This document shows positions 1,995-54,447 of a stretch of DNA of 64,000 nucleotides, in pieces. Below the pieces are notes generated by a model. The model was given only the letters and a program-made list of their open reading frames with translations, was not told the DNA's origin and did not search any database. The stretch is from positions 1 through 64,000 of the forward strand of contig JAUCBJ010006844.1 in the NCBI GenBank assembly GCA_032718475.1. Direction: 5' to 3'. The position numbers and the translations under genes are program-made. Source of the DNA: Nemertoderma westbladi. Taxonomy: Eukaryota; Animalia; Xenacoelomorpha. How positions within the stretch are numbered: the first letter of the stretch is position 1; every line of letters starts with the position of its first letter.

Positions 1995-4900
1995 GAGGTG
2001 TACACAACACGGACATGTCCGTAAGGATTGCCCAAACACGGACACCTGTCCTTCATGTGGACGCAATCATGACGCATTGCTCCACACTGATAGTCACACA
2101 CCGACGACACCAGGGAACACCCAGAAGCAGCAGCGAAATGCAACACTGCATACAAGACACGAGAATCGAAAATAACACCAACTTTTGTGATCCATATACG
2201 GGATTGTTTCCCAGAACAATCCGGGTCGTCGGATGAAGAATCCGAAGACGACGACGCATATTTCAACAATGGGGTTGAACAACCATCGATTGCGCTTCTG
2301 ACGCCTGATCAACTGAAAGGATTCAGCGTAATTCCTGTCAAGATTACGGGCACCAAAGGGAGCAAACGCATTTATGCAATTTTGGACTCAGCCTCATCTC
2401 ACAGCTACGTGGATGAGAAGGTAGCTGACGTGGTGACGGACCTTCAACAAGGTAAGAACGTCAGATATACCATAAGTAGTATGCATGGACAACGTGCAAT
2501 ACCAGTGACAAGAGTTAAATTGAACTTAGACACCCTTCTTCCAAAATAGCAACATAGCGAAGAGGAGAGGTCTTTGCTACCTTTTAAGGATTTAACCTTT
2601 GCGGCAACGAAGGACTTTAGTAACCTACTAGGTCCAGTGCCAGAACAATCCTTGGAGGACCGTAAGTATTTTAGACACCTTGGTGTACCAGAATTTCCTG
2701 TTAATTACAGATCAGTAGCAATGCTGATCGGGACAGACCAATTCAACTTACATCAAGTGTGGGAAACCAGACCATCGGTAGTCGTAGCAGGAAACGCTTA
2801 CGCCTGTAGAACTCCGATAGGTTGGTATACTCGAGCGCCTGTGCGCACTCTGGATATAAGTGACGAGGAAGACGATATACAAAGTACATGTAGTTTATTA
2901 ACTACAACTTCGACTCATTCCTTTTCACACGACGTAGACCATACTACACTACATTCGACAAATCATGACACGACATGTGTAGCTAGTATGATAAGTCACA
3001 AGGAGCAGCTAATCCACCAGGTGAGTTTAGAACTTGAGGAGAAGACGAGTCAGCCAGAGATTACATCGACGACAGATGATAACGCCGGAAGGCTTGCGAG
3101 TCTACCTACACCAATAACCTCAACAATGCCCGTCGATATCGATGACGACGCGTTAAGAAATCATCAAGTGGAACAAGCTGCATTGGACAAAGAATTAACG
3201 GAGAAGACTATCAGGTGGTTAGAACAAGATACAGCTGAACCTGGTAGCTACGAACCATGTATGTCGGAACAAGAGAAACAATCTTTGAAGATCATGGAAG
3301 ATACTATCCGCCAGACGAAAGACGGACATTATGAGGTAGGGATGTTATGGCGTAACCAATGTCCTAAACTTATAAATAACTATCCACTAGCCTTAAAACG
3401 TTTAAACTCAATATGCCAACGTTTATTAAAGGACGAGAAAGCCCATTTACAGTACAATACTCAAATGGAGACGTATTTGACAAAGGGGTACGCTATCAGA
3501 ATGACAAACCCAGAGATTGTGACTGACCAGACTTACTATTTACCACATCACTACGTGAGACACCCCGACAAACCTGACAAAGTATGTGTAGTTAATGACT
3601 GCGCGGCTCTGTTCGAGGGAATGTCTCTCAATAGTGAGCTGATGGATGGACCAAACATGAATAATTATCTCATGGGGGTGATTATGCGCTTCCGTCAACG
3701 CCAAGTAGCATTTACTTGCGACGTCGAAGCTATGTTTCACCAAGTGCGAGCATTAGAGCGAGACAGAGACAGACTGAGGTTCCTCTGATACCCGGATGGA
3801 GACTTAAGTCAACCACCGGCGACTTACCAAATGCAAGTTCGCGTATTCGGTGCCAGGAGATAGCCCAAATTGTACTATGTACACACTAAAACAGACCGCT
3901 AGGGACCAGAAACATAAATATGACCCAGAGGTAATCCAAATTGTAGAACGAGACTTTTATGTCGATGATGGATTACAAAGTTGTGACACAGTAGAACGTG
4001 CTATAACAGTAGCACATCAATTACGGGACTGTTTAGCGGGTGGAGGTTTTAACCTCACCAAGTTTGCTTCAAACAGCACCGAATTGGTAAATTCATTCGA
4101 AACGACTGAGCGTGGAGGTGGTGACATAGACCTAGAATTTGAACCACTACCGACGACCAAGGTGTTGGGACTATTTTGGGACCCGAACACAGACAACTTT
4201 CGTGTGAAAGTAAGACTGGACGCTCAAGGAGATTCTCTGACAAAGAGGTCTTGCTTGTCAAAACTGAGTCGATTGTTCGATCCATTAGGTTTTATCAGCC
4301 CAATAATACTGCAAGCAAGAATATACATGCGCAGTATCTGGAAAGATGGACTGACATGGGACGAACCGATCTCATCCGAACAAGTGGACTTATGGAAAAC
4401 TTGGGAGGCACAATTATCTTAATCAATCAATCATCAACTCAATTATCTTTATTATTCCATACTCTGGGTGTATTTTCCATTACAGACGACATTTCCTGAC
4501 GACTTAGAATTACATTGTTTTTCCGACGCCAGTGACAATGGCTTTGGAGTGACAGCGTATCTGCGTAGACAAGTAGGCACAGATGAGTTTGACGTATCGC
4601 TCATTACTTCTAAGGCTAAGACCATGCCTAATAAGTATATGACGACACCACGCGCTGAGCTACAAGCAGCAACCTTGTCAACTACAATTGTAAACCTTAT
4701 ACAGACTGAACTACAATCAAGTTTACAGATCTTTTATTGGACTGACGCGACGTTAGTTTTGTTTTATATAAACAATGACAAACTTGAATTTAAGACATTT
4801 GTAGCTAACCATCGTGCGGAAATTCTAGACCATTCAATAAAGGAAGATTGGCGACATTGTCCAGGGCCACAAAATCCAGCTGATATTGCGTCGCGAGGAA

Positions 4901-5499
4901 TGATGCCAGAGGAATTCTGTAAACCGGAAAACAATAAATTTTGGCAACACGGACCACAATTCTTACAAAGATCATCACAACATTGGCCGCCACTATACGA
5001 TAATAAGTCTAACACTATCCCTAAAGACGCTGAAATTAAAAAACCAAAGAAAGGGAAGACAAAAAAAAAGATGACGGCAAAACTAAAGAAGAAACCGAAG
5101 GCGAAAATGAAAAATATAACTTACATAGTTAAAAACGGAAGACTTGCGAGCCTTTCTTCACCAGACATATCGCTAGACGGTCAACCAGACATGTTACTAG
5201 ACGGTCAACCAGACACGTTACTAGACGATCAACCAGACACGTTACCAGACGGTCAACCAGACGCGTTACTAGATGGTCAACCAGACATGTTACTAGACAA
5301 TCAACCAGACATTTTGCCAGATATGTCACTAGATGTTTCGCCGGATTTTCCGCGAAACATTTTACCAGACATGTCACAAGATGTTCTACCAGACATTAGT
5401 AATGTATTGACACGTAGTAAAGCCGCAGTTTCCCTATTGGAGCGGCCTTCTGTTGACAAACTATGTAACAGCGTACAAAATTTGACACTCTTGAGTCAG
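1995..5499 (+). mobile_element. BEL/Pao element A: decayed gag(C-term)-PR-RT-RNase H fragment, close relative of element C
   Basis: Gag knuckles GHVRKDC..CPSCGRNHDALLH; protease ILDSAS; RT YYLPHH, FTCDVEAMF, FYVDDG; RNase H FSDAS, ELQAA, WTDA, NPADIASRG. Stops at 2547 and 3786 plus frameshifts. Shares HPDKPDKV and SELMDGPN with 46183..53172. Confidence 0.92.
5160..5396 (+). repeat. 24-bp coding tandem repeat (PDMLLDGQ-like) in the RNase H-integrase linker
   Basis: Repeated CCAGACAYGTTACTAGACGGTCAA-like units, degenerating toward 5396. Confidence 0.85.
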
Positions 5500-5642
5500 G
5501 CTTTTTCTCAACCGCAATCTTGCATTTAAGAACATTCCTTCTCCACAATCAATATCCGGTGACTGGCCGGGATTCCGTGGTCTGTAAAGTTCCGCCTCCT
5601 GCATCTGCGTTTTCCCCCATGGTGTCGGGAATAACGGCAACA
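5500..5642 (+). repeat. 3' part (U5) of the 5' LTR of element B
   Basis: 143-bp match to 18074-18216 with 2 mismatches seen; ends ...ACGGCAACA. Confidence 0.9.
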
Positions 5643-6075
5643 AAATTGAGAATAAAACGGTCAATTTTGACAGGGTGTCAAAATTGAGAATAAAACACGG
5701 CCAACTTCAACTGGTGGAAGTTGGGAATCCTACAATACTCTTCAAACTCTCTCCGTGCTTACCCAGCACCAACTACGGGAAACTCTGGTATTTGAGTTAA
5801 GACAAAGCCGTGGTTTAATCAATCGACAAACTCGATATAACAAACTCGTAGTCGGTAGATCACATATAAGAGAGTCGTTAACAGGGAATGGAAGTATCGA
5901 TCACACCCATTGACATAATTCAAGTTGAGCCAGGAATCTGGCATGTCGAGGTTGAAGTACAAGGAACGAACGTCGGATGATTTAGGATTACCATCCGAGT
6001 AATCCAAGCCGAGTACGAGAGCTACGAAGAACTATTCTACGACATCGCATATCTCACTATCAACGAGGCGCTAGA

Positions 6076-9000
6076 ATGACAACGAACAACGTCTCCGAAA
6101 CCGACGAGATGGACACCCACAGACTCGGAAGCCGACGAGGTACCAAATGTCAAGAACATGACCCGTCGACTAGGCGCTCTCAAAGGCGGCATCACTCGAG
6201 CGTATCAACGTATAGAGAAACAACTCAAGAGAGTCGAAACTCCCCTCAATGAGATACAAACTCAGCTTCAGAATATCCGAAGTATCTTACAACGATATGA
6301 GAGGATGATACAGGCGTATCAAGAACTCGTTCCCTCCACCGATCAGGTAAACTACCCCAGGTTAGAAGAACATGTTGTACATCTAGATGAGTTCCGCAAA
6401 CAACACTGGAGAAGCCTAAGCCTTGTGAGAGGCTACGAAGAACAGTACTACAAGAGAGCGGAAAGAACAGATGCAGAATCAGTGCGAACCTCCAGCACCA
6501 GGACAGCAACACATCGAAAGAGAACGGGGTCCTCCAGGAACCAGCACTCCAGTGCTAGGAGCGCGGTGTCCGGTTCAGCACACAGCTCTCAAGGTCAGCC
6601 ACTCCGAGACCAGCTACGAGAACAGAAGGCATTAGCCCTCAAAGCTCGGATGGAAGATGAGTATGTTCAACTGCGCAAGATATATTAGCCGCCGAAACGC
6701 AAAAGCGAGAGGCCGAACAAGCGGCCGAACGGCAGGTCGAACAACGCAAACAGGAGGCTGAACAACATAGACGAGAGGCCGAACAACGTGAACAGGAAGC
6801 TGAACAACGTGGACGAGAGGCCAAACAAGAGATCGAACAATGTAAATGGGAAGCAGAAATACGTAAACAACACGCCGAGGCCCAAGCGATTCTCATCCAC
6901 AAAAAGAATGTGGATATTGCAAAACTCGCGGACTACGAAGCCATGCTTTTAGAACGAGATATTTAACTGTACGAGGACTGGGAAAGGGATATAGATCAGA
7001 ACTATGAACCAATACCGATACCAGAATTAGAGAAGTCATTAACGATACCGACGGTGAAACCTCCAAAACCCGAGTTCCCGCCTACCATACAGTCTACGTT
7101 ATCGGCACAAGCACCGGTATTCCATCCCCCACCGGTTACGCTGAAGAATGAGGAACCTTATATCCCAGCCACTCCAACGGTCCCGAGCGTCCCCAAGTAC
7201 GAGCCTGAAAAGGACTCGGAACGGATTGCCACTCCCCGATCCAACAACCCGTTTACATCCACACCACAAATCCGTAGCCGCTTCATCATTAAAACTCCAC
7301 CTATCATCGATCCATCGTGTATGGGAGAGAGTGCCGATAATTATAACCCTCCTAGTCATTCCGGTTCAGACAACGTTGGCATTATCCGGGCATTAGAAAA
7401 CCGACTGGCCATGCCCAAGATGGAGATCCGCACCTTCAAAGGAGATCTCCTTCGAAGGAGATCCCGTCGATTACCTCAGATTCAAGAAACGGTTTTTCGC
7501 GCAGATTGGATCAACGGACATAGCCGACGCACAAAAGTTAGTATATTTATCCCAATACCTGGGCGATAAACCACGCCGGTTTACTATGATGCATGGAAAA
7601 CTCTAGATAAAAGATACGGAAATATCGGGACTATAATTAATAAAACTCTCGAGAAACTGATACAGGACGCGGGATCCCTAGGGGACCCACAGAATATCCA
7701 AGAATTCTCAGATTCGATGAAAGATGCCTACTACACTCTAAAACCATTAAATAAGGAGGAACAAGTAAACAACATTCTAAACCTCTGACAGATCGCCCGG
7801 AAGTTCCCCGGATGGCTACAAAGTAAGTCGGCGTATAAATGCGTAGATCTCCGGCGCAGACACCCAGATCGAGATCCCAGGTTCCTCGAAATGTCGGCAT
7901 TCCTAGACGATATCTCCGAAGCCATGAATGACTCGATGTTTTCGAAACAGAGTCTCGCCAAGTTAGACGGAATAGAAAGCAACTCCAGGAGTAAGACGCC
8001 CACTCAGAAACCGAGATTCCGTCCCCCTCCGGTGAGTACGATGGCCATCACCATGGCCGAGGATTCCGATGATGAAGACTACGAGGAACTGACATCAGCC
8101 GAGGAATGGGCGTGTTACCTTGCGAATTGGGCACCCGAGAGGGAAGGCATCACAAACTCCCTTCTCTGTCTCTTCTGTGGAGAGAAACATAAAGTGGAAT
8201 TCTGCAGGAAGTTCCAGTTCGCCGAACTCGTCCCACGCTTCGAGGCGATAATGAAACACCGAGGATGCTTCCGGTGTCTTGGAACAGGTCACTCTGTTCG
8301 GGATTGCGACCAAAGATCGTGCTGTGCGGTCTGTAACGACCTACGTCATCACACGCTCCTCCACATCCCCGCGAACTTTGACTTCACCACCCTCCCCTTT
8401 CGGATTGAAGCCAAGCGAAGAGGAGAAACGAACCACGTTTCTAAAGGAACCCGGACAACCCAACGGAGAGAAACCAACCCGTTTAAAACCTCCACCGATG
8501 CATCACAAGTGACAAATATCTCAGCCACGATCAACCTTATAAATCGCCGTTACATGGTCTTCGCCAAAGTAATCCCAGTAAGAATTCAAGGGGTCGGTAA
8601 ATCCTTGACGACGCTCGCGTTCCTTGATAACGGGTCGGACGGAACCATCATCGACCGGGATTTCCTCGAGCAACTCGGCCTAGACTATGAACCTTGCAAA
8701 CGGCCCATACAAACTATCACCGACCACAGAGAGGTAGAATCCGGGGAGGTGCAGCTCCAGATGGAAGGAGTAATTGAAGGGCTACGAGACAGTTAAGCTG
8801 ACCATCAAGAACGCCTTGGTACACACAGACCTCCGAGTGCGGTTCCGACAATCAGCCGAGTACGCCCCCCTCATACAGTTGGACCGAGACGATGTAGACC
8901 TAAGGTGCCCGCCGTTGGATGTAAACCGCATCACCCTACTGATCGGACTTGATACACCGGAATTACACATACCCACCGGAGACGTCGCCCGATCTATAAA

Positions 9001-12000
9001 GCAGGATGACGGCTTTTACGCTGAACGAACAATAATGGGATGGACACTCTGCGGCATCAAGGAAGAGACTACTGACACCTATACATACCTTCCTAAATGT
9101 CAGATTAAAGAGAATGCAACATCCGTGGGTTATTGTTCAGCTACAGACCTTGACGAGGATTTGTTTCTTGAGACCGAGAAAACCCAGCAAGAGATGACTA
9201 AATACTTTAATCTAGAGACCCAAGAGTTCGCTGAAAAGGACGAAAACCCGTCCGAGGAGGATCAATATTGTATGGACGTCCTTGACCAGGCCACGTTCAA
9301 AGACGGACACTGGTGTTCACCCATGTTATGGAAGGACCCAAATAAACCAATGGCGAATAACGCCAACATGGCCCTTAGGCGACTTAAGGGGATCCTATGC
9401 CGGCTGAATGACCAACCCGAGATAAAGGAGAAATATAATACTGTAATCAAAGGATATCTCGAAGATGGATTAGCAGAAATGGTACCCCGGAATGAACTGC
9501 AAGGGGGTAAAAGAACATATTATCTTCCAACCCACTATGTGGTAGAAGCCCGGAAGGGTGGTAAAATCCGAGTAGTCAATGATGCCGCCGCTATGTATCA
9601 AGGCGAATCCCTGAACAGCCAGCTTTACACGGGGCCCAACATATACAGTACACTCATTGGCGTGTTGATCAGGTTCAGGGAAAACCGGATAGCATTCACC
9701 TGCGACATCAAAGCCATGTTTCACCAGGTCCGTACGCTACCAAGAGACTCAGACTGTCTACGTATACTATGGACGGATAAAACATTAACTCAACAGGAGA
9801 TTAGTCAACTTACAATGAAGGATGTAGACGTAATGCGCATGATCGTCAGGATCTTCGGCGCTAAGGACTCGCCGGTAGCATGTAGTGACATGCTGAAGAA
9901 AACGGCAACTATGTGCGAAAACGAGTTCCCTCCAACCGTCATAGAAACCATCCGACGATGCTTCTACGTGGACGACGGATGCGCCGGCGCAGATAATGTC
10001 GACGAGGCATATCGGCTAGCAATGGGGATGGTAGAATGTTTAAAGAAAGGAGGTTTTCCGCTCGTGAAGTTCAGATCCCATGACAAAAAACTTATGGAAA
10101 AGTTTCCGGAGGACATCCGACTGGACAACAACAAAATGTACTCCGAGGATGCGGAACACCAGTGTACTCGGTATTGAATGGGACATAGAATCAGACGAAT
10201 TCATTTTCAAATATAACCCCCTACCCAAGCCTATGACGAAAAGGGGATGTTTGTCAATAAAAAGTGCAATATTCGACCCACTAAATTTCATATCTCCGGT
10301 AACCTTGGCCGGAATGAATCTGATTAAGGAAATGTGGATAGAAGGACTGGGATGGGATGAAGAACTCCCCCCACACCTCAGTGTCAAATGGAGAAAATGG
10401 ACGGAACAGCTCGAACACCTACATCTTATGCGGATCCCTCGACCGTTCTTCCTCGATAAACTACCCACCGATATCTTCCAGCTCCATACCTTCTCGGATG
10501 CTTCGAATACCGGAATCGGCGTAGTCACCTTCTTAAGAAGACTAAGTAACGATGGAAACGGCGATACGAGCTTCTTATTTTCTAAAGCTAAGACAGTATC
10601 CGGGGAATTCGTAGCAACGATTCCAAGACTTGAGCTACAGGCCGCAGTTTGGGCAGTGAGACAGAACCGCATGGTCATGCGGAACCTACGAATCCCCATC
10701 GAATCTCAACACTTCTGGGTCGATTCGAGTATCGTTCTCTACTATCTCCACTCTCCATCACGGCGTCACACCACGTTTGTAGCGAACCGAGCCACGGAGA
10801 TAAAACAGTGTACCGGCCGAGAACAGTGGCACCACGTGAACGGGAAAGAAAATCCAGCGGACTTATCAAGCCGAGGCGCCACCCCAAAACAACTCGGTAA
10901 AAGTAAACTCTGGCTTACAGGCCCGGAATTCCTACAGCAGCCACAATTAACCTGGAGTACCCGATTCGATCCCGAACTCGATAGCGGAAAATACTCCGAG
11001 GACGACAAGGAGATCCGTAAAGTCCATAGAAGCAACGCAGTGGAAATTTATAGTTGTCTGACCGAGCCTGCAAAGGACTCGGGCAGGCACTATAACGTCG
11101 CGACGATCACTCAACCAGCGGTGTCTTTACACCTGTTGATCGAGCGAACTTCATCAATGAGACGTCTCATCCACCACGTTATAACCCTTCGCAACTTCCT
11201 ACGGTGGAAAGACAACAAGCCGATAGTTCAACGGAGTATACAAGAACTCATTATCGCGGAGAAGTGTATTGTTGGATATGTCCAGAGAGAAAGTTTCCCC
11301 GATGAGTGGGAACAACTCAGTGCGGGCAAGACCTTGAAACCGGACAGCCCAGTCTACCAACTGAGACCAATGATGGGAGAGGACGGACTGATCCGACTGA
11401 ATACCCGGATGGCAAACGCCCCGGTTGAATATGAGGTTAAATACCCAGCGCTTCTGCCCGGAACGTCGACACTAGCCAAGCTATTAATTCAACAGTGTCA
11501 CGAGGAAAACCACCACGCGGGACAGAACTGGATTATAGCTAATATACGACAAAGGTATTGGATCACCCACATCCAGCCACTGATCCGGAAAGTGTTAAAA
11601 CGTTGCTTTCCCTGCAGAAGATATCTAGCGCCACCACTCACACAAAAGATGGCCGACTTACCAGCCACCCGTCTACAGTCCGATTCCCCACCGTTCTATG
11701 TAACCGGAGTAGACTGTTTCGGACCGTTTACAGTCATCGAGCGACGATCCAACATCAAATGCTGGGGAGCCATCTTTACCTGCCTTAGGTCTAGGGCAAT
11801 CTACCTAGATATCGTGGTGAACCTTACGCAACACGCATTCATCAACGCCCTGCGTCGGTTCGTGGCGAACAATGGGACATGTCGTCATATGTACTCCGAT
11901 AACGGTACAAACTTTGTGGGAGGAGAAAGAGAACTTAGAGAGGCGATCGAGGGATGGTTTACCGAGGACACCGCATCCCAAGTCTGGAGGGACCACCACA

Positions 12001-12671
12001 TACAGTGGCACTTCCAAACACCCTTAGCACCCCATACGAGCGGGGTATGGGAGAAGCTGATCGACTTAGTAAAACGATCCATGCGCGTCGCATTAGGAGA
12101 CACCCGGGTAACCCATGACACCCTCCGCACAACATTCTGCGAGATCACGGCTACCCTGAACAACCGGCCCATTGTCCCTATCCGCGACGACCCCACAGAC
12201 CTGGAGCCCCTCACTCCTAACCACCTACTGGGAAGACCTAAAACCCATATTCTCCCAGAGACGATGTTTCCGGATCCCGACGATATCGCGAGACATACTA
12301 ACTGGAAGAAGGCCCAAGCGTTGGCAGCGCATTGGTGGAGAATCTGGGCCCAGGAGTACCTCATAACCCTCCGGACCAGGAGGAAGTGGAACAACACCTA
12401 CAGGAATGTCGCAGTTGGCGACATGGTGCTGGTGAAAGAAGACCTCAAAGACCGCGTCCACTGGCCTGTGGCGCGAGTCGTGGCAATACAACCGAGCAAA
12501 GACGGACTTGCGAGGACTGTGACGATACGAACGGCAAAGGGCCACTACCAACGCCCTATCCAGAGGCTGTGCCTTCTTGAAGGCAATGACAGCGGTGACT
12601 CTACGAGAGGTGATAAGTTCCCTACTCAGGATCCTGCTGCAGACATTGGTGACAATTACAAATGCGTTTAA
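6076..12671 (+). pseudogene. Frameshifted gag-pol of element B
   Basis: BEL-type triple knuckle (CLFC..H..C; CFRCLGTGHSVRDC; CAVC..HHTLLH); protease FLDNGS; RT FTCDIKAMF, FYVDDG; RNase H FSDAS, ELQAA; integrase HEENHH..CFPC, GVDCFGP, SDNGTNF, WEKLI. Split over ORFs 6158, 7054, 7891, 8774 and 10080. Confidence 0.92.
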
Positions 12672-12944
12672 ACCCTTCTCATCCTGTTGACAAACTCTTT
12701 ATAACTGTGATTTACTCGACAATGATAAATGGACCCCCCTTAAACCAACTGTAACCACGCAATGGTATTTGTGTTTCCTCGTGTGTTATGTGGAGTCCAG
12801 CGTCACCCTGCAGATGTTTCGACTGACGCAGGGTCGTTTATGTATTGTTTACCCTGATTTTGGTCATCGGGACCAACGATATTGGATTATTGGAAATGGT
12901 AAAGATTTGAAGTGGAATTCATTGTATCCATTGTAGTATGTTAT

Positions 12945-13371
12945 GTTGTCCGTTGCGTGCGCAGTTCGGGGCGTAGGCGGTGTAACTAGTCCAGCTGTAG
13001 ATCCCGGATTGCCGCTGCAACACCCCCTCTATCCCGTTATTCTGGTGGGTCCATGGTGCATCCACATGACTTCGACGATAGAGGGTTTTATGTTTCTCAG
13101 TCGCGTTATTCTGGTGGGACCGTTGCGTGGATTTTGGGGCGTAGGCGGTGTAACTAGTCCAGCTGTAGATCCCAGAATGTTGCGTAACCCCATCCCACAT
13201 GACTTCGTCGACTGAGCTTTATGTTGTTGGGAGTGTTATTCTGGTGGGTCCCTGGTGCATTCCACGTGACTTCACTTCCAGCGTCTTCATTGTCCGTTAC
13301 GTGTGCAGTTTGGGGCGTAGGCGGTGTAACTAGCCCAGCTGTAGATCCCAGATTGCCGCGTAACACCCCTT
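12945..13371 (+). repeat. Three-copy ~170-190 bp repeat between pol and ORF3 of element B
   Basis: Core GGGGCGTAGGCGGTGTAACTAG(T/C)CCAGCTGTAGATCCC at ~12968, ~13136 and ~13312; GTTATTCTGGTGGG also recurs. Confidence 0.85.
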
Positions 13372-13920
13372 CCACAACGAAAATTTCCCAAAGAAGATGA
13401 TTGAATGTAGTTGGAAATGATGAAAAGAAACAGACGACCTTACTATAAACCGAATGATGACGCGTATGATGATGAAAATGTAATGATGCGCACCCTGGTG
13501 CTGCGCTTATAACAAATGATGATAGCCGGGGGGCTATAACCCCAATGATAATGTGGAAATAAATGAAATGAAATGTGAAATAAAGTGGAACTAAATGATG
13601 AAATGTGTTGAAATAAATGAAATGTGATGAAATAATAATGAGAAATGAAAAAAGACAAAAAAATGTATAAAAATGTCTAAAGAAAAGAATTGGAAAAAAA
13701 GAAGAGGACATAAAAAGTCAAAACTGGTTGGATATTAATGTATAGCTATAGTAACTGTAAATGCTGAATGTATTAGCAATAAGATGGTAGATGCCTATAT
13801 AGCAATGTTATTTAATAAACTGAATTAAAAATAAAACTGAACTATTCTGCAATCACTATAGTTTCAGACTTTCTGGATTTATAATTAACTGATATAATTT
13901 GCAACGGACATAATTTAAAT

Positions 13921-16521
13921 ATGGACCCAAATCGCCAAATTATCGGCGAATTACGTAATACGATAGATCTACTGGAATATCCACAACCTGGATCCCCTAA
14001 CTTTGATACAAATTGGAGCACCCTGATAAATGAGAATGTGCGAGTCGTCAAATTCTCCGGGCGAGAGGGACCGGATTCCCGGAATCTACGAGCCCTCCGG
14101 TTGGCCGATGCTAGTACGAGACTGAAAAGAACTCGGAACGCAAAGGCTACCGGAGGGGATGAGTTGTCGTATTGGGAAACGTTTCGGCAAAGCGTCTACA
14201 GATCCCGATGTTTGATATACGACAACGAGGGAAACGCGACGCCCACCTCGAAAGCGATGACGTTGGCGCGATGTCAAAGTTTCGTCGACGACAAGAGTAC
14301 GTACCTCGCCCACTGGGGAAACCTAGCGGAGTGTACGGCAACGCTACGAGAGGAACGTATATCGATCATCCAGAATCGCGACGACTACCAGGAAAAGTAC
14401 GGGGCGAAAGAATACGGTCGATCCTTGGTCGTCGTCCTCGGAACCCTGGACGGTTTGGTATTGGTGTGTCGAATATTCCCGACACCCAGACAGGAAGTGC
14501 AGGCAGCCGGAGCGATCTGGTTGCTACCTCCGGAAATCCAAAAGATCCTCTTCGACTTCGACGTCATTAAAATCGGGTCGGATATAAAAGCGGACGTCCG
14601 GAACGACTACGCGAACGCTCCTTTAGGAAGAGACCGTAAAGGAGATCTCAATGCCATTAGTCATTGCATCGACACCCAGACACTACTAGCCTGGTTACGA
14701 TCCGCCGAATTCATGCGAGGATTCCGCGAGGTGAGACAGACGAAATCCGGGATCGGCTACCTCGCTGTACTAAACGGCGGCATCGACTTTAAACCTCAGA
14801 AATTCCAGGACTATAATAAGATATATGGTGGATACCCGGGATTGGAAATAAAGAGCGAGCGAGAGGGTCGATGGAAGGACGTTGACAGGAGGTGGACGAT
14901 ACACCAAAGGTGGGAAAATCCCGATCGACGGAACTACATCTACGTCGTTATGGAGTCCTACACCGTTGCTAAGTTTATATGTAAAACTCTCGATAACCTC
15001 ATTACGGCGGTTCCTCTTTCCTTTGTCGACTACGACTGGAACGAGGTTATAAACCACGCGTTCAAAGCGGTCGAGAACATTACACCGGGAGAGACGAAAA
15101 CACTCACCGTTATCGATTCCTGGGACGAGAACGGACCTTACGACATCCCCACGATTACCGATCTTCTCGGTGCGGAGGAGCCTCTGATTTCTTCGGAAGG
15201 GGAAGAACTATGGCTACATGAGGGCGTTCTACTGTCTACCCCAAAGCGACCACTCGAGCCGGAAGCTGCATACGAACCGGCCGCCAAACGGGTTGCCTCG
15301 GCCGAACCTGCGACGGAAGCAGGTGCTTCCACCCCACTCGGCTCTGGTAGCCCTGCGAGGGAGTTAGTCACTACCTCCGCGTTGAGCGACTTCGGCGACA
15401 TATGCCAAAGGTTATCCCCATATCCTTTCCCGGGCGGCGAAGACTGGTCTTCGGAGATTCCGAGTACCAGCAATCAACGGACCCGCTCAGCGATACTGGT
15501 CGAGAAGGGTCCCAGCGCTGCGCCGACCCCCGAAGATCTCCTCGGAATCCCCCAGTCGAAAACCCCGGCACCTCTGCGCCGACCAGCGGTGACAACTACT
15601 CCCTCCATTCCACAGGATCCTATGCGGCTAACCCGATGGTACGCCGAGCAGACCGAATGGATCCACCGCCAGAAACGGTCGTCCGAGATGAGACCGGCAG
15701 GACATAAAGAAGGTTATCGGAGCGAGAACCTACTACGCCAAAGCCCAGCCTTTCGCGGGCTACCGGCCACCGCGAATATTCAAAAGAGCGACCGACGACT
15801 CGAGTATTACGTCGGCGTCCCGATTCCGATATTCCCCGGTCGAGAGATGCAGTTGGAGATATGCGCAAACTGCGGTTCGGAGCAGTGCCCACGCGGTAGA
15901 CGAAATCGGGTTACCGATTCGTGCCTACAGCTCCTCGGGATACTGTATTGCCCATACTGCGCGACATCGGGACATGATGTCTCGGTTTGTCCAATCCTTT
16001 ATAACCTCTGCACAACTTGCGGTTTCCGTGGACATTCCGCTAGCCCCCGCTGCTATATAAAATGTCCTACAAAAGACGTTACCGCTATGGGAAATATGGT
16101 CATGTTCGAAACATACGCAAACAGCCACATAAGGACCAAAGTGCGGAGAAACGCTCGGAATATCGCGCAGGAAATGGCATGCGGGTACTTTTCCTTCCCG
16201 GAACGCCTCCACACGACAGCGACGTTACCTTTCCACTACGTGGATCTGTTGCTGAGCGCCGGATTATTCGGCCCATTCGAAGTCCTTCGACGCTTATATT
16301 CGTATAAGGAGGAGTTTGGTGACGGAAAGTGGTTCCTAGAGGCGCGCAACACCGAGTTGGAAAGACGAACCGACATGATCCCGTTGCCATCGAAAGGAAG
16401 AGCCGCCAGGAGACAAGCCGAAACGTTGCTCACGATGGATATCGATGCTCCCCTACCAGCTCTAGCGATCGACGAGAGTCGACGGGCGAAGAGGAGAAAG
16501 GCGTATCAGAGAAAGAAATAG
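13921..16521 (+). CDS. Element B ORF3: DEDDy-like 3'-5' exonuclease + CCHC zinc knuckles, 866 aa
   Basis: ExoI-like IYDNEG; LPPEIQKILFDFDVIKIGSDIKAD (ExoII, WRN/EXD/RNase D-like); IDTQTL; SGIGYL; ExoIII-like YVVME; knuckles CPYCATSGHDVSVC and CTTCGFRGHSASPRC. Confidence 0.8.
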   Translation: MDPNRQIIGELRNTIDLLEYPQPGSPNFDTNWSTLINENVRVVKFSGREGPDSRNLRALRLADASTRLKRTRNAKATGGDELSYWETFRQSVYRSRCLIYDNEGNATPTSKAMTLARCQSFVDDKSTYLAHWGNLAECTATLREERISIIQNRDDYQEKYGAKEYGRSLVVVLGTLDGLVLVCRIFPTPRQEVQAAGAIWLLPPEIQKILFDFDVIKIGSDIKADVRNDYANAPLGRDRKGDLNAISHCIDTQTLLAWLRSAEFMRGFREVRQTKSGIGYLAVLNGGIDFKPQKFQDYNKIYGGYPGLEIKSEREGRWKDVDRRWTIHQRWENPDRRNYIYVVMESYTVAKFICKTLDNLITAVPLSFVDYDWNEVINHAFKAVENITPGETKTLTVIDSWDENGPYDIPTITDLLGAEEPLISSEGEELWLHEGVLLSTPKRPLEPEAAYEPAAKRVASAEPATEAGASTPLGSGSPARELVTTSALSDFGDICQRLSPYPFPGGEDWSSEIPSTSNQRTRSAILVEKGPSAAPTPEDLLGIPQSKTPAPLRRPAVTTTPSIPQDPMRLTRWYAEQTEWIHRQKRSSEMRPAGHKEGYRSENLLRQSPAFRGLPATANIQKSDRRLEYYVGVPIPIFPGREMQLEICANCGSEQCPRGRRNRVTDSCLQLLGILYCPYCATSGHDVSVCPILYNLCTTCGFRGHSASPRCYIKCPTKDVTAMGNMVMFETYANSHIRTKVRRNARNIAQEMACGYFSFPERLHTTATLPFHYVDLLLSAGLFGPFEVLRRLYSYKEEFGDGKWFLEARNTELERRTDMIPLPSKGRAARRQAETLLTMDIDAPLPALAIDESRRAKRRKAYQRKK

Positions 16522-16686
16522 AGGACCAGGATATTCCAGGAACATTTATATTGGACATTTATTTTTATATATATATTGAACTCTAGGCCAAATTAATCAA
16601 GACTATGCAATATTAAAATTTTGGGTTTTTTATATGGGAATGACCTACGCAAACTCAATCTACCGATAGACCTCACGAAGGTCATT

Positions 16687-16695
16687 GGGGGGGAC
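16687..16695 (+). promoter_or_regulatory. Polypurine tract of element B
   Basis: GGGGGGGAC immediately before the LTR start TGTTCGCGG. Confidence 0.75.
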
Positions 16696-18216
16696 TGTTC
16701 GCGGTATTTCAACTTTTCATAACGCGAGTTGAATATTTTTTGTATTTATTTAAAATGATTATTCCGATATCACTACTGGGTGCGGGACAGTGGGTTTTGG
16801 GCACACTCAATGAACTGGGGGCGATTTATGGGCGAATATTGGGGCGACTTACAGGGTACGGGACTCATTTCATGTATATAAGGGCCAGGGGGGGGAAGGA
16901 AAAGTTAAGCAGTATTCAGGTTTACCTGACTACTATTAGGCCTAGCCAACTTCCTGCTGCCTGTAGAGGTGGATTTGGTAACTCGCTAGGTCTAAAGGAC
17001 AAGGACTGCCCTTAGCGGTCCCTGGCAAACAGCAGTTATTACGAGCCTGAAAAGGACATCGGAAAGTCTGCTGCTTGTGTCAGGGATTTGCGACGGGAAA
17101 CGATGACAGACCCCGTAGCCAAGCCGTACTGGTTCTCGATGATCGTTCCCTTCGGGGTTCGTGAGGGGTGGGACGGACACGCAAAAGGGTCGACCGACTT
17201 ACAGAGGAAGGGTTTGACGAGGACTGCCCTTAGCGGTCTCTGGTCAACAACAGTTATTACGAGCCTGAAAAGGACATCGGAAAGTCTGCTGCTTGTGCAA
17301 GGGATTTGCAACGGGAACCGACGACAGACCCCTTAGCCAAGCCGTACTGGTTCTCGATGATCGTTCCCTTCGGGGTTCGTGAGGGGTGGGACGGACACAC
17401 GACAGGGTCGAAAGACAGAGGACTGGACTCTACTGGCCTACCGACTGTTCGGAGCAGTTTCTCGGCCGCCGAAGCGACTACGAGCCTGAATAAGGACTCA
17501 GAAAGCCTAGGTGGTTGGGTCTCTGCGATGAACCGACGGACCCCTAGCCAAGCCGTACTGTACTGGTTCTCGATGATCGTTCCCTTCGGGGTTCGTGAGG
17601 GGTGGGACGGACAAGCGAACGGGTCCACCGACACGACAGACTCCTAACCAAGCCGTACTGGTTCTCGATGACCGATCCCTTCGGGGTTCGAGAGGGGTGG
17701 TACGGATACGCGACAGAGTCTACAGACTGGACCGACCCTTAGCCAAGCCGTACTGGTTCTCGATGATCGATCCCTTCGGGGTTCGGGAGGGGTGGTACGG
17801 ACACGCAACAGGGTCGACCGACACCGACACTACGGCATCAAGACTAGGACCAAGGGAAAATCTGGGGAACATTAGTTAGGCTAAAATCTGAGCGATTTTT
17901 GGGTAATTAAATAATTTACTGTAGGGATTTATATTGTCGTGTATTATTATTGTGAATAATTTGGTGTATATTGGTTTGGGGAAGCCCAATTTATTCTCAA
18001 TCAAGGTTCAGTGAGATTAGCTCAAGGTTAAACCGTAGGGAAGTTACATTAAAGCGTATATCCAACCAATGCAGCTTTTTCTCAACCGCAATCTTGCATT
18101 TAAGAACATTCCTTCTCCACAATCAATATCCGGTGACTGGCCGGGATTCCGTGGTCTGTAAAGTTCCGCCTCCAGCATCGGCGTTTTCCCCCATGGTGTC
18201 GGGAATAACGGCAACA
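16696..18216 (+). repeat. 3' LTR of element B (1521 bp)
   Basis: Starts TGTTCGCGGTATT after the PPT, ends AATAACGGCAACA (imperfect terminal inverted repeat); last 143 bp match 5500-5642. Confidence 0.85.
17117..17801 (+). repeat. Five-copy hairpin repeat in the LTR (CCC-TTCG-GGG core)
   Basis: CCAAGCCGTACTGGTTCTCGATGA..CCCTTCGGGGTTCG.GAGGGGTGG.ACGGA at ~17117, 17335, 17546, 17648 and 17741. Confidence 0.9.
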
Positions 18217-21200: not shown

Positions 21201-22300
21201 GACACCACCACCGTGTCTATCCCTATCCTTATGTAAAACTACGTAATTATCAATATAAATTTCTCCATCAGAAACGCTATCATCGAGCCAAGTTTCAGAT
21301 ATTGTTAAAACTGCTGGGTTGGATTTATTGATTAAAATACGAATTTCGGAAAGTTTGGGAAGCAGAGATCGTGCATTTAAATGCAAAAAATGCAGACCTT
21401 TTTTCTTAAAAAATTTAAAAGTTTCACTCTCAGCATCACTTGGAGTTTGCAGAGGCGATGTGAGGAATGAATCGTCGGTTTCTGATTCTAAAATAGTATC
21501 ATGAAAGGGAAGTTCGGTAAAAATACAGCTATTGCAGAGAAAACTTGGCTCAAGATTGTTTCTGGTGGAGAATAAATTACTGCTTTTCCTACGGTAACAT
21601 TTTAAATGTACAAATGTGTCACAACTCTCGCATTGGACGATCTTACTCCGAGAGTTTGTTCCTCGTTGACAGACGGGACAGTTGATCTTCGGGGCCCGCG
21701 TCCTGCTGGGTCCAGGGTTGGTCTCAATATCCCCAGCCAGAGACAGAGTTTCGCTATTAGGCCTCTAGTTCGTGGAGCGGAGACCCAAGATCTTCTTCCC
21801 CGACGAGAGCAGTACAACAGTAGAGGCTAAATGCACTCGTCGACCACATCTCCGTCGATTCGGCGCGGCAGTTCGAAACGGTAGCGACAGGGTGTTCGGT
21901 AAACCAGTCCAATACGGGTATTGGGTGGGTTGCAGGGTTACCCCGCGGATCGGATGGTTCTGCCACAACGAAACGGCCCAGAACGATGACAACTGTGGAG
22001 ATTAAGAGCGGTGACATTGTGCTATCTGGCTGTAGTCTGACTTAAAGATAAAAACTGTATAGGCCTAGTACCGGTATCTTTCTTGGTCTTATTGTCGGCA
22101 GGCCTACAGTTGTTCGCGTTGTTATTGAAACTACCGAGATGAAAGTACCGAGATAACTTTAGCTCGTTACTAAGTTCTCAGTTTTATCTCTGGACTATGA
22201 AGAAACGGTGTTCTTGGAAAAATCAATAAGATTAGTACCGGTACTAATACTAAATAAACACCTTAGTCTATCAGCCTTCATGAATACCATTCTAACTTGG
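18217..22300 (-). mobile_element. CR1/L2-group LINE (2A-PHD-APE-RT), frameshifted; 5' boundary approximate
   Basis: GDIETNPGP then PHD (CPVC..CESC..HLKC..CNSC); APE (HLNARSL, ISETWL, GDFN, LDH, SDH); RT (NYRPVS, AFDTVDH, GVPQGSILGP, YADD, YLG); AATAAA and short tail next to 18217. Confidence 0.9.
21708..21734 (-). other. 2A-like (StopGo) ribosomal skipping motif GDIETNPGP
   Basis: Minus strand GGGGATATTGAGACCAACCCTGGACCC, in frame with the downstream PHD finger; matches D(V/I)ExNPGP. Confidence 0.85.
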
Positions 22301-24495: not shown

Positions 24496-24676
24496 GAGTA
24501 AAAATATCGAGTGTTGAAAAATATCGAGTGTTGAAAAATATCGAGTGTTGAAAAATATCGAGTGTTGAAAAATATCGAGTGTTGAAAAATATCGAGTGTT
24601 GAAAAATACCGAGTGTTGAAAAATATCGAGTGTTGAAAAATATCGAGTGTTGAAAAATATCGAGAGTAAAAATATT
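24496..24676 (+). repeat. 17-bp tandem array (AAAAATATCGAGTGTTG), left arm of an inverted pair
   Basis: About 10 units, with GAGTAAAAATAT variants at the ends. Confidence 0.9.
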
Positions 24677-40269: not shown

Positions 40270-43200
40270 TTATCGACCCGCTCCTGGGTTCTTTGGGCTC
40301 GCTCCTCTCTTCCGCCCCCTTCCCAGATACACTAATCGTCCTCTAGTCGACTCCGTTGACGGCGTCCGTGAGGCGTCACTCCCCGGAACCGGCGACGACG
40401 TTCCCTGAGCCCCGACAGATTCTCGGCTCGAACTTCTCCCTCGGCCTCGTCCCAATTGTCGCGCTCCCGTGGTCGCTTCCGCCAACTCTTCCTTCTGCAG
40501 TTGCACACGCGCTTTCTCAGACGCCCCCTGCGCCTTGCGCTGCAACCGTTGCGCTTCTATAATAGAGTGGTAGTGGTCGTCCTTGACTTGACGCTTGTCT
40601 TGGACCCCTCCTCCTGGTTCTTTCCGCGAGCCTTGAGCTCCAGCGGTCGTCGCTGTGGTCGCTGCGATCCTTTGTTCCTGTATCCTCTCGGCGGTCAATG
40701 AACCCACTGGCACATGAGTCAACAAGAATTCGTTGCGGTATTGTATAGCCGCCATCCTCCAATCACCTCGCGCGCGTACCACTTTTCTAGTCTCCGTAAA
40801 TACACCCTTCGTGATGCGATCGCAAATAGCAACGAAGTTCCATGTGTACTTATTGTCCATGTTCAATTGTCTGAAGTATTCTCGGACTACGATAACTCCA
40901 GTGTTCTGTGGAAGGTCTTGAGAAGTTAGGATGAGCTCCTGATATTGTGGTAGCGATTGAAGATATGGCTCGTACGCAACATGCGATGGGTCTACCGCCC
41001 AAAACCCATATCCCGCTTTAAATGGTAACCAACGCATCTGCGCTTGAATATGGTAATCCGCCACACTCTCCCACTTATCTAACATCTCCCGAAGTAGGTT
41101 AGCGCTATGGTTTTGAAAGGAATCATCTCGCAGCTGACATCTCGCGCTACGGTGTCCTTTTACTCCACAATATCCACATTGAGAAATGAAGACGGTGCAC
41201 GTGTGAAACGAATGGTCGGTCTCATTGCACCAACGACAGACCTTATGCGCCGCCTCTATTACCGCGTCGCACGACTTTAGATTGTGCCTTGTGCTGCCGC
41301 ACAATTTGCACCTACGCGCTTGTGGAAACCAGGCCCTCTCGTATATGAGGTCTCCAATCGGTTTCGCACTTCCTTCCTTCCCAATGTCTAATACGATGTC
41401 GTCCTCTCCGGTCAACGGTTGTCGATCCGGAACAAAGTAAACATCCTCGCCCTTGTCCTCTATCTCCAATATTTCCTCCCGCGTTCGTTTCGGATATGTC
41501 TTCTCCACCGGAAGATCTACTCCGAACACCTCTACTAAAGTCTCCGGCCAGCCCTCCTTAACAGGTCTATCAGCCTCCGAGTGGAAGGGAGTACCAAACC
41601 CGCGGGTTTGATTCCCGAACCACTTCTCCAAAGCTTCTGGCGTCGGATATTCCATCGACGGTCGGTCTCCCAAATCTCCGATGTTCTGTCGATATACTCC
41701 TTCGAATATCGCTAATCCTCTCCTCACCATCGACGTATTCTCTAACGACTGGTTGAAGAACGGGGTTAAGAAACGCTTCATCACGTCGGATTGGATTCCC
41801 CCTTTCGAGCGAACGTATTGATCTCCTCCGAATACCAATGGATGACGCTTCAAAACTCGCGCAACGATATCCGCTAATAAACAAGTCACCGTGTTCGACT
41901 CAAGCACCAAATAATATTGTAGCGACGCACGGGGTGGCGCGCAAATGTTCCAATACACTAACGCTTGCCGCTTGAAGTGGGATTTGAACTCCGCTCCCGG
42001 TGGCGTGTTGTATTCGCCATACGCCTCCTCGTACTTCTTTTGCGTCTTCAACTTAAAGTCCCAATTATACAACAAGTGTGCTATAAAGCCCATACCAGTC
42101 TTGGCAGAGTTGGGATACTCCCTATAAATTCCAATATCCTGTGCCCATAGCAACAATAGCTTGGTGTCGACAAACGGTCTCGGCAATCTATCTTCCAGAT
42201 CAGTCATGGCGTTGAAGTCGCTCTCCAAATCGCTCTGGACTCCCGATCCCACCTTGACGTAATCTTGGTTGAGAATAGCCTCTCTAACCTTCTTTGGGTA
42301 ACATCCTGGCGTCGATACGCTCCGCTCCGTGCATACCTCCTCGCCTGCATACCTCCAAAATCTGTTCCCTAGGATCCTTCCCCTTCCGATATTGTGTCGT
42401 TATGATGGGCTCCGGTCTCTCTCTATCCGCCCTCACAAGCATAAACACATGAGTCACACCATCGGCCGCACGAATTTGAATACACTTGCTGGTCAAACAT
42501 TCTTGATGGGACCCTCCTTCATTGTCGTAGAACATCACCCTCCAATCCTGCAGTGATTCCTCCGTTTTCCTCCACTGACGCTGAATCTCATCTGATGGGG
42601 TCCACATGCGCTCGATCGCCTTGTGGTCATCATATCGGGTATAAGAACCCTTCCTCCTCAGCCACGTCTGGTCTACCTCCTCGTCGTCTGGGAATGTAGC
42701 CACCGCGACCCATACCTTGATGTACTTATCCAACCATCCGAATAACTTACTCTCCTTCCCCGGAGCTCCAATCTTGTCCAAAGTGTCGTAATCTGTGATC
42801 TGCATTGGGACATCATGCAAGAACTTCGCGCATAAAACTTCCCGTAGACAGTCAACGTTCCAATGGTCCGCCATTCTTACCATCGGCAAGAATCGTATCG
42901 CTTCTCGCGACTCCGGATGATCTACTAATATCGCAGGTTCGGTACCGTCGGAATAATACACCGGTCCGGGTTGAGATACGACCTGTGGAACAAATCCGGT
43001 CACTCTCCTCGTCTCCTCTTGATGTCTATCCGCGGTCTTATTATACTCCGCTATCCTGTTCTCAAATAACTCCTTCGCCTTCGCCGCTCGCTCCTCCTGC
43101 CGCAACGCGTCTATGTCGTCCTGATGCTCAGGCGTGAGGCTTCTCACTCGGTGAGGTGAAGTAAACGCAGTCCAGGGACTCGAGAGCTCCAAACCCGCGG

Positions 43201-43978
43201 GTTTGGTACCCGAGTCCCGCGCCGCTTCGCGCCGCGCCTCTAGATCCTTGTAGGCTCGGTACAGCGAAATGGCCGCTGCCGTCTCTATCAAACTGGGTGT
43301 CGAACAGGGTTTAATCTCCGTATACGGATCTAATGTCGTAACGGTCGGCGTAATGGGTCTCGGAGGTCGCTTTCCGCTGAAGTCGATACTGATCATCGGG
43401 TTGCTCATCGGGTAACCTCCCTCGTTGTATCTAAGGAATTGGTGAGCTGGACATCGCGTTAATATCGGTTCCGGATGTTGCTCGTCTAGTCGGTCGGGAA
43501 TCGCCACGTCCTGTTTATTCATGCATTCACCACACTTGTAGAAGAGCTTGTATACGCTGAAGACTTTCGGCGTCTCCTGATCCTCGCCTCGAGTCCTCCG
43601 ATACAGGTGCATTCCGTCGAACTGGTCTCGGACTGCAGGTAGAGGCTCCTCGTGTCGTAAATACATATTCATATGGTATAGTCGTGCGATTTCCTCGTCC
43701 GGATCTGCGCTAATGTCGCACACGTCCAAAGCAAAGTCGTAGGGATACCGCGTGCGATACTCTCTCCGCAAGACTTCCATCCGGTCCCCCAACGCTCTCA
43801 TTCTTTCTCTCCGTAATTCTTTATCATAACTTGGTTTATACTTCCCGTTCGGCTCCATCACGGACCGCCCATGGTAGTAAACGTTAGAGTCTTTACATCC
43901 TGGTCGCGCGAATGGTAGCTCCGCCTCCTCTCTGGCAGTAAATCCTCTGCGCGGTTGCGCTCTAATATCCCTCTCCAT
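40270..43978 (-). CDS. Element C ORF3: 3'-5' exonuclease + three CCHC knuckles (~1235 aa if one extra base at ~42293 is removed)
   Basis: WRKTEESLQDWRVMFYDNEG; repaired LPKKVREAILNQDYVKVGSGVQSD; VDTKLL; TGMGFI; YLVLE; knuckles CKLCGSTRHNLKSC, CRWCNETDHSFHTC, CGYCGVKGHRSARC. Confidence 0.8.
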
Positions 43979-44733
43979 TATGTTACGCGTATATACATAT
44001 ATATATATCCCAATAAGTGCCGTTACGTAACCAACTACACTGTGGGTAAATCAGTTAGATGCCGCCGAAGGACAGACCTCCCGAACCCCCCCGCCTTCCA
44101 GCAGTTCAGGTTCGACTCTCTAGATCCCGTCTCTTCCTAACTAACTATCCTCTAACCTATTCCCATGCATAGCGCAAAACTTTGGAGATAAACTGGCCGT
44201 GACCAACTCACTTTTTGATGCCCAAACTACTCCCATTACTCCTACTAAACTACAGTAGTTAGAAAGGACCATAGCCACAATACTCGACTATACCAAACCC
44301 ACAGGTTTGATAATCGAACATCACACATCCTGCAAACTACTGAGTGGGGTCCATGTACGCCTCTGGTGCTACTAACCTTTAGCACCCTAGTTGCACTGTT
44401 GGCACCAATCTGTGGAAGTTGCTAAACTCAATTTACACTCCTACGTAATATAGCCGTCACCATGGTTTCTAAATGCTATTTTCCAGGCTTCACGACTTTT
44501 CAAATTACTGTTATCTATAGACGAATTCTAAAACGCGTCTATACCCAGCGTCTGGAATTGTCTTGGGTTCACTTCTAATTTTTAAAATTTTCTAATTTTC
44601 CAAAATTTTGAAAATAAAATTTTGTTTTGATACCCACCAGACAAAACTCAACGCAAATCACCACAACCCCGCTCCTATGCATTTCCTTGTATTTGCATAC
44701 GAGGAATGCATACGAAGTGAGTTGCGTCCAACA

Positions 44734-53172: not shown

Positions 53173-54447
53173 AGTCTAAATAATGTTTGCCTTCCGGCAA
53201 AATATCTCGCAAAAGTTCGAGATATAATTATAATTTAACCGAAATACGGTCAAATTATTTGTCAAATAATCAGTTGGTCCAAATGTCAAAAATAAATTCG
53301 CAATGCAATATTGTGAATTTAATGGGGTATATAGTTATAGCAAATACTAACACAATATTTAAACAAAATATTATTATATAGCTACTATATAATATTAAAT
53401 ACCGGTATAGCACAAAATAACTTTTGAATCTAATACAAAATATTCAAAATAAACTTGCCACCCGAATATTTCTAATTTTATATATAGCTCTAATCAACGT
53501 AATTTTAATTTCAAATATTATATGTATCCACTAGCGCGTGGCTACATCTTCGGGTTGCGACTCTCTCTAACTCTCTCTCTAACTTGAGCGATTCAAAAAA
53601 CCATGGCCGGCTAAACCTAAATATCCTAACTAATAAATTGAGTTCAGCTTCGCAGTTAAACAACCGGTAATTTTTTACTGCTTCCACAAACACAGTGGTG
53701 CCAACAGAACAACTAACCTTGTTTGCTGTGAGATTCCACGTCCGCGTCCAAAGATTCAGGCCCTTCGCTGATTGCAAACCGAACCCGCAGACCCACACGA
53801 ACCCCAAACTCAGAAGTTCCGTCTTGCCATGTATCTCCAGATGGTATAAAATAACTAAGCGGTTACCTAACATACCGGTACAAAACTCTAGAATTTTACA
53901 AAATAATTTTGACCGAAAACTGAATTCTCGCAAACCTAGCTAAAATTTTCAAAAAACTTACTAATTACTGTTTGCCCTAAGGCCTAAGGAACTGCTGTAT
54001 TCGCAATTAGCAAAACGCACTACCGTACATCCACTGTATGCAGTACAGTAAGTAAAACAGTACACCAACCTAACAGCCTAATGATACTGTGTGTGGTACG
54101 GCAAACAAATGTCCCTTCTACCGTACGCAGTAACAACAATCAGCCTAATGTACTACTGTACTATTGTACGCAGCCAGTGAATACAGTAATCTAAACTAAC
54201 AGCCTAAAAGAATATACTCAATGTTCTACCGTACGCTAGCCTATAGCCTACAGCAGACGATCACGTGCTCTAACTTATTACTTAATACTGTGATACTACT
54301 ATCAGCCTAAGAATACTATATTGACCGCTGCAAGCAACAGCCAATAACGCGTATTACTGATACGAAGTATCAGTAATCTAAACTAACAGCCTAAGAATAC
54401 TCTATTTACTGTACGCTACAGCCTACAGCAAACAGTGCGCGTATTAC

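Follow-up and report, generated by a model that had tools for sequence, protein, structure and literature searches.

A primer binding site complementary to the element's own long terminal repeat suggests probable self-priming in BEL/Pao retrotransposons of Nemertoderma westbladi

The stretch of DNA analysed here (the window) comprises 64,000 nucleotides (nt) from Nemertoderma westbladi (Xenacoelomorpha), namely positions 1 to 64,000 of the forward strand of contig JAUCBJ010006844.1 in assembly GCA_032718475.1. It holds two large retrotransposons with long terminal repeats (LTRs), referred to as B and C. Judged by its domains and repeats, B is a broken BEL/Pao element on the + strand that has a 3' LTR and a polypurine tract and whose 5' end is cut, while C is a complete BEL/Pao element on the - strand with a 5-nt target duplication. 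Peptidase_A17, Integrase_H2C2 and DUF5641 occur in both, with DUF1759 in C in addition, and 1,565 homologues have the same domains. The nearest relatives of B's pol are 34-39% identical, the named ones being from a ribbon worm, echinoderms, fish, a brachiopod and crustaceans. By pol, both elements belong to BEL/Pao, and their missing tRNA primer binding site (PBS) is a departure from the description of this family. In its place, directly behind the LTR, stands a word that is complementary to a piece of the element's own LTR. This relation suggests that B and C likely prime minus-strand DNA with an LTR-derived piece of their own RNA and not with a tRNA.

In B, the LTR ends in GGCAACA, followed by AA and then by ATTGAGAATAAA at 5645-5656, with no TGG behind the LTR. 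The reverse complement of ATTGAGAATAAA occurs a single time in the window, at 17990-18001, which corresponds to LTR positions 1295-1306 of 1,521 and lies 215 nt before the LTR end. Both observations had been made in an earlier note on this DNA and are borne out by the letters. Matches were scored as the longest LTR complement from starts +1 to +4 behind the LTR end, with dinucleotide-shuffled LTRs (n = 1,000) and internal positions as controls. A match of 12 nt or more was reached in 0 of 1,000 shuffled LTRs of B, and 5 of 2,756 internal positions reach 12, of which two coincide in position with the site and with a further copy of it at +41. The latter is formally an equally good match in the leader (5683-5694), of the kind that the earlier note had named as a point against the pairing; it is a duplication of the LTR-end/PBS word and not an unrelated match. 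No tRNA genes were found in the window, and an Rfam scan of the window gave five weak matches, all below gathering score and none in the LTR repeats.

Contigs of B's family from three studies span the element in many variants. The variant check drew on four DNA contig sets over all of B and gave 2,025 variant rows. The LTR-PBS junction (5520-5730 examined) is covered by runs X2 and X3, and X4 is without cover of 5648-5655. No TGG start was found among the rows listed for this interval. Positions 5643-5656 are touched by 0 of 13 listed substitution rows, and the listed indels begin behind 5655. An apparent deletion of the site in run X4 (joint 17989 to 18105) was rejected, as the contig continues with diverged LTR letters. 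The copy present here shows the complement in the 3' LTR only, since just 143 nt of its 5' LTR are left, joined to the pol relic of a BEL/Pao element upstream. The PBS is unpaired in the predicted local fold of 5561-5760, and hairpins are predicted in the unique 5' (U5) region and in the leader; the pairing between site and PBS in B is judged from duplex energy only (-11.1 kcal/mol).

Element C shows the same relation with letters unlike those of B. Its match is 11 nt long from +2, which is reached by 2 of 1,000 shuffles and by 3 of 3,660 internal positions, including itself, and by the shuffle control the LTR complement is thus beyond chance in both elements, in keeping with the earlier note. 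On the nine other LTRs, used as swapped partners, the longest match is 8 nt for B's PBS and 7 nt for C's. The geometry differs between the two, since the piece lies 215 nt from the LTR end in B and 1,041 nt in C, pairing starts at +3 and at +2, and C has no TATA-like word within 30 nt of its piece. Covariation had been proposed on the grounds of unrelated letters in the same geometry. The first part stands, in that complementarity recurs with unrelated letters in C and in the distant relatives described below and therefore amounts to covariation between families, but the common geometry does not. In the leader of C, the LTR-end/PBS word is repeated about 90 nt downstream (54348-54362, - strand), which may be compared with B's copy at +41.

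Relatives came from one scan of metagenome contigs, in which 80 loci were kept, 19 short ones were removed and 61 were searched for LTR pairs; viral contigs searched for relatives gave none. Thirteen loci with an apparent LTR end were read and ten, in which the direct repeat fixes that end, were scored, with L002 and L046 (unclear ends) and L060 (a cut sister of L061) left out. Each locus was compared with 585 control positions under the same rule as at the PBS, and matches across a GT(A/G)AG..AG intron in the LTR were allowed. A TGG site is present in two of the ten (L001 and L003), and there the LTR matches are just 4-5 nt. Of the eight non-TGG relatives, seven pair with their own LTR over 10-15 nt, and in each case 0 of 585 control positions do as well. 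The match is contiguous in L015 (11 nt) and L051 (10 nt) and is found only across the intron in L018 (12 nt), L020 (11 nt), L025 (12 nt), L067 (15 nt) and L073 (13 nt). The eighth, L061, reaches 6 nt under the standard splice rule and 10 nt, again with 0 of 585 controls, under a looser acceptor rule, and the primer piece spans a predicted intron in six relatives.

With L018, L020 and L073, which have a common PBS core, counted once, there are eight distinct PBS/LTR letter pairs including B and C. When PBS and LTR were swapped between elements (n = 90), six pairs among L018, L020 and L073 reached 11-12 nt, and 4 of the 84 others reached 10 nt and none more. Eighteen further loci without a defined LTR end were scanned without a control: matches of 10 nt or more no further than 4 nt behind a CA were seen in seven (two of them sisters of scored loci), with two more where the CA is 5-6 nt off and one TGG site. 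Native folds of L051 and L015 give a pairing probability of 0.95, and extended pairing is predicted. In a quick integrase tree of 82 rows, the eight matching relatives fall in one 67-row clade (support 97), with the TGG pair outside. In L015, L018, L020, L025, L051, L061, L067, L073 and B, the paired PBS stretch opens with the pattern G/A, T, T/A, which C does not show; these shared letters may mark a preferred cut or start site.

Taken together, the pairing is family-specific, 10-15 nt long, and starts no more than 4 nt from the LTR end wherever the TGG is missing. Because B, C and distant relatives with other letters all pair the PBS to their own LTR, the group likely self-primes. The RNA would begin within the 5' LTR, either at the piece or upstream of it, and the piece would fold onto the PBS 1-2 nt behind the LTR end. 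Next, the element's ribonuclease H (RNase H), the most likely agent by analogy with the retrotransposon Tf1, would cut the RNA at the duplex 3' end, and the new RNA 3' end would prime DNA, with U5 copied back to the cut. This DNA would then transfer to the RNA 3' end, for which the poly(A) site must lie downstream of the piece; in 8 of 10 elements AATAAA or ATTAAA lies entirely downstream of it, in C the hexamer overlaps the piece end, and L015 has none. In many relatives, the piece would arise only once the LTR intron is spliced out, while B and C would carry it ready-made. A splice-built primer in B or C was considered and rejected, since both matches are contiguous and the 4 and 24 candidate junctions bring no gain. 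AG acceptor-like words do occur at 17926 in B (by eye) and at 55551-55557 in C, about 50-65 nt upstream of the piece, and an intron there could move the piece nearer the cap; a good donor was looked for and none was found.

The usual metazoan spacing from TATA box to RNA start is about 28-33 nt. In B, TATATT begins at 17967, 23 nt before the piece, and with this spacing the RNA start would fall inside the match. The LTR of B has five TATA-like words, the best of which is TATATAAG at 16875. The GTATATT that the earlier note had taken for the start-setting box is therefore not favoured as B's promoter. The best TATA-like word of C is 625 nt before its piece, and in L018 and L067 a TATA word stands ~140 nt before the splice donor. 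As the best TATA words lie well upstream of the piece in B, C, L018 and L067, promoter words favour an RNA start upstream of the piece, which would probably make the primer internal to the RNA rather than placed at the cap.

One alternative is that the pairing exists but has a regulatory or structural role (in packaging, translation or site protection) and that a host RNA, for example an internal tRNA fragment, primes. Half-tRNA primers are known in Ty1/copia lineages (PMC6317226, from the available part of the paper), tRNA priming is listed for the family by the International Committee on Taxonomy of Viruses (ICTV) (PMC8742986), and the low predicted pairing in C, given below, is consistent with such a primer. 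However, this reading would call for a separate tRNA fragment plus a fitting LTR piece for every one of the eight PBS words, pairing of this kind is absent from the two TGG relatives, and all matches begin no more than 4 nt from the LTR end. On balance, we consider a host-RNA primer unlikely.

A second alternative, which we rate as slightly less probable again, is that the primer is the RNA 3' end, with the piece in the 3' LTR pairing to the PBS once trimming has taken the tail back to the duplex; a possible trimming enzyme in B and C is the exonuclease-like protein of a third open reading frame (ORF3). The piece does lie 0-105 nt upstream of the poly(A) hexamer in 9 of 10 elements, and the DEDD-like ORF3 of B and C keeps its acidic motifs in place. 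The two ORF3s are 26% identical over 170 amino acids (expect value, E, 1e-11). The DEDDy pattern consists of ExoI D-x-E, ExoII D and ExoIII Y-xxx-D on an RNase H-like fold; the motifs D-x-E, D and Y-xxx-E are found in the ORF3 of B, in a relic at 30935 and in the protein P0122, and across two frames in C, and Cys/His knuckles are present. The relic (30935-31783, + strand) is a third, diverged ORF3-like sequence with the same acidic motifs. P0122 is the sole outside homologue from the ORF3 homology searches, being the one true hit among three matches in one search and the sole match in a second, with none in another. The exonuclease assignment is weak, which speaks against trimming: the best database matches are to EXD2 (E 0.19) and, for P0122, to DNA_pol_A_exo1 (E 0.2). 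The predicted structure of ORF3 has a predicted local distance difference test (pLDDT) score of 38, too low for the model to be of use. Moreover, the matching relatives are without ORF3, since only 113-375 nt separate the integrase match from the 3' LTR in 8 of 8. ORF3 as a requirement for the pairing was therefore rejected, and with it the link between the two that the earlier note had drawn; a trimming role of ORF3 in B and C may still be envisaged from its motifs. Finally, elements whose primer is built by splicing still pass on the intron, which would fit splicing in the 5' copy and copying from the unspliced 3' copy.

That B's match is due to chance or is a template-switching scar is very improbable: the word is AT-rich, the leader has a duplicated and an inverted copy of it (the +41 duplication and the hairpin at 5661-5687), and one contig has 10 other letters in place of 5656-5701, but such a match is expected by chance about 1 in 1,000 times, the same relation is seen in C and in 8 of 8 non-TGG relatives, and the duplicated leader is present in contigs of two studies.

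Several observations nevertheless weigh against self-priming as the explanation for B and C. Besides the AT-rich match, the copy of B is broken and its 5' LTR is without the site, and the invariant 14-nt stretch at its PBS is not significant, since the 211 nt hold just 13 variant places. The helix between site and PBS of C has a probability of 0.05 in the native 1,147-nt fold, and this low predicted pairing would weigh against the proposal or call for chaperoning. Among the relatives, the splice rule was drawn up after the loci had been read, and the 10-nt cases are weak alone because 4 of 84 swaps of unrelated families reach 10 nt when junctions are allowed. In the integrase tree, the long branches of B and C fall outside the 67-row clade with unsure placement, which makes a common origin of B and C with the matching relatives no more than a possibility. 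A decayed gag-like frame with a long leader and no protein match to C lies at 32500-35200 (- strand); the PBS-like word behind a CA at 34809 resembles that of C. The best complement to this word is 5 nt in 2,781 nt upstream, in a region unconfirmed as an LTR element.

BEL/Pao is a major animal LTR superfamily that is assumed by the ICTV to be tRNA-primed. If self-priming holds, it would be the third superfamily with the Tf1 strategy, and elements without a findable PBS would be explained. Such elements would no longer depend on the supply of tRNA or be open to silencing by tRNA fragments at the PBS, and through the splice-spanning form of the relatives the onset of reverse transcription would be coupled to host splicing. 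It is conceivable that a broad part of BEL/Pao has swapped the tRNA for a self-RNA primer far from the cap, in many cases via host splicing of an LTR intron, with splicing as a reverse-transcription switch and the giant ORF3-bearing B and C as the intron-free form. This wider proposal is tentative, and we lean slightly away from it.

The features of A, B and C are collected in Table 1, A being a relic that is joined to B. Within the LTR of B, an 87-nt unit is present five times at 16998-17829 (periods 218, 216, 95 and 95), downstream of the TATA word and upstream of the primer piece; folding predicts for it a long hairpin closed by a UUCG loop, it has no Rfam match, and the copies are too few to judge. 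Between pol and ORF3 of B (12946-13372), a 70-nt unit occurs three times with a long stem in which 3 of 25 pairs are changed on both sides; again the copies are too few to judge, and the units could serve ORF3 expression. Element C has a 16-nt near-palindrome at 40098, 41595, 43190, 44294, 46381, 48618, 51239 and 52858, spaced by 1.1-2.6 kb and mostly in coding frames. It gives 15 strand-wise matches against 0.05 expected, with a pattern derived from these same copies, and is possibly a packaging, dimer or protein-binding signal; no recurring perfect palindrome was found in B.

Table 1. Positions in the window of the retrotransposon features discussed in the text.
Feature	Position	Strand	Remarks
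Relic of another BEL/Pao pol (element A), joined to B's cut 5' LTR	2094..5499	+	Peptidase_A17 matches; repeat with 3' LTR begins at 5500
B 5' LTR, last 143 nt, ends CA	5500..5642	+	98.6% to 18074-18216
B PBS, +3..+14, no TGG	5645..5656	+	letters ATTGAGAATAAA
B leader hairpin, 11 bp, covering first 5 nt of second PBS copy	5661..5687	+	also predicted by folding
B second copy of 12-nt PBS word (+41)	5683..5694	+	both copies bridged by contigs in two studies
B gag-pol, five broken frames	6080..12671	+	Asp_protease_2, Peptidase_A17, Integrase_H2C2, DUF5641
B ORF3, open, 878 codons, DEDD-exonuclease-like part and Cys/His knuckles (weak assignment)	13885..16521	+	
B polypurine tract (G-rich)	16687..16695	+	
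B 3' LTR, 1,521 nt, TG..CA	16696..18216	+	
B best TATA-like LTR word, TATATAAG (candidate promoter)	16875..16882	+	
B 12-nt PBS complement, putative self-primer	17990..18001	+	duplex -11.1 kcal/mol
B ATTAAA, candidate poly(A) signal, downstream of primer piece	18048..18053	+	
C ORF3, two frames, homologous to B's ORF3	40270..44050	-	
C PBS, +2..+12, no TGG	54436..54446	-	
C 5' LTR, 2,179 nt	54448..56626	-	3' LTR 37601-39779, 99.9% alike; 5-nt target duplication
C 11-nt piece complementary to its own PBS	55489..55499	-	copy at 38642-38652; duplex -15.4 kcal/mol

Elsewhere in the window, there is a broken non-LTR retrotransposon with a PHD finger, an endonuclease and a reverse transcriptase (18784-21764, - strand), and two inverted arrays of 15/17-nt units lie at 24466-25466. 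An uninterrupted 437-codon frame for a major facilitator transporter stands amid repeats (35789-37102, - strand), and a transposase-like frame at 60867-63722 (+ strand) has no Pfam match and a 562-nt tandem duplication.

B and C share with Belpaoviridae the Pao-type pol order of protease, reverse transcriptase, RNase H region and integrase, TG..CA LTRs, a polypurine tract and metazoan relatives at 34-39%. According to the ICTV, which regards replication in the family as poorly understood, the PBS is 18 nt long and complementary to the 3' end of tRNA-Arg or tRNA-Gly, LTRs measure 0.2-1.2 kb and genomes 4.2-10 kb (PMC8742986). In contrast, B and C are without a TGG site, with LTR lengths of 1.5 kb (B) and 2.2 kb (C) and a total length of 19 kb for C. 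The extra ORF behind pol with exonuclease-like acidic motifs resembles the DEDDy ORF3 of rotifer Juno and Vesta, as described in the accessible text of PMC5408684; that of B and C is found in BEL/Pao and has added Cys/His knuckles, and the likeness is one of description, with a weak assignment. Among the papers listed, no title or abstract start pointed to self-priming in BEL/Pao, a search that left subscription journals, Repbase reports and supplements outside its reach, where a mention may exist. Term look-ups found no mention of priming in a BEL/Pao survey (PMC3118150) and only primers for polymerase chain reaction or sequencing in the Sinbad paper (PMC554778), and the portions available of PMC8220671, PMC3601003, PMC5445492 and PMC5443660 contain no link of BEL/Pao to self-priming.

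Tf1/sushi, Tj1 and Tcn1 have been described as self-priming, and the same has been predicted of plant TAR copia elements, according to the accessible sections of the papers, which also underlie the comparisons that follow (PMC6317226, PMC4600332, PMC5341516, PMC7175516). For TAR, Houba and Osr-1 of plant Ty1/copia, the rule is a complement of at least 10 bp located 0-5 bp behind the LTR, which is what B and C show (PMC6317226). These elements belong to another superfamily and another kingdom, and a link to splicing is not mentioned for them in the available part of that paper. Also close are Tf1/Tf2 and Tj1 of Schizosaccharomyces and the Tf1/sushi and Tcn1 groups (Ty3/gypsy), which have no tRNA site and an LTR piece of 11-12 nt that is exactly complementary to the PBS (PMC7175516, PMC4600332). 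A PBS without a tRNA CCA complement and with at least 10 nt of own-LTR complement, as in Tf1, is likewise found in B (12 nt) and C (11 nt). In Tf1, the RNA's first 11 bases anneal to the PBS and RNase H makes its cut between base 11 and base 12 (PMC7175516). A supporting stem of U5 and leader around the PBS also belongs to Tf1-type self-priming; beside it, the local folds made here give U5 and leader hairpins in B and extended pairing in L051 and L015. A piece at the first bases of the RNA is thus a feature of Tf1, whereas here the start is read from promoter words only, and the piece lies 625-1,115 nt (C and B) or about 140 nt (L018 and L067) behind the best TATA word. B and C further differ from the Tf1 group in being BEL/Pao, with a pol of the Pao type and not of a Ty3/gypsy chromovirus, in a loop between piece and PBS of up to 1 kb in C, and, in six of their relatives, in a piece that spans a predicted intron.

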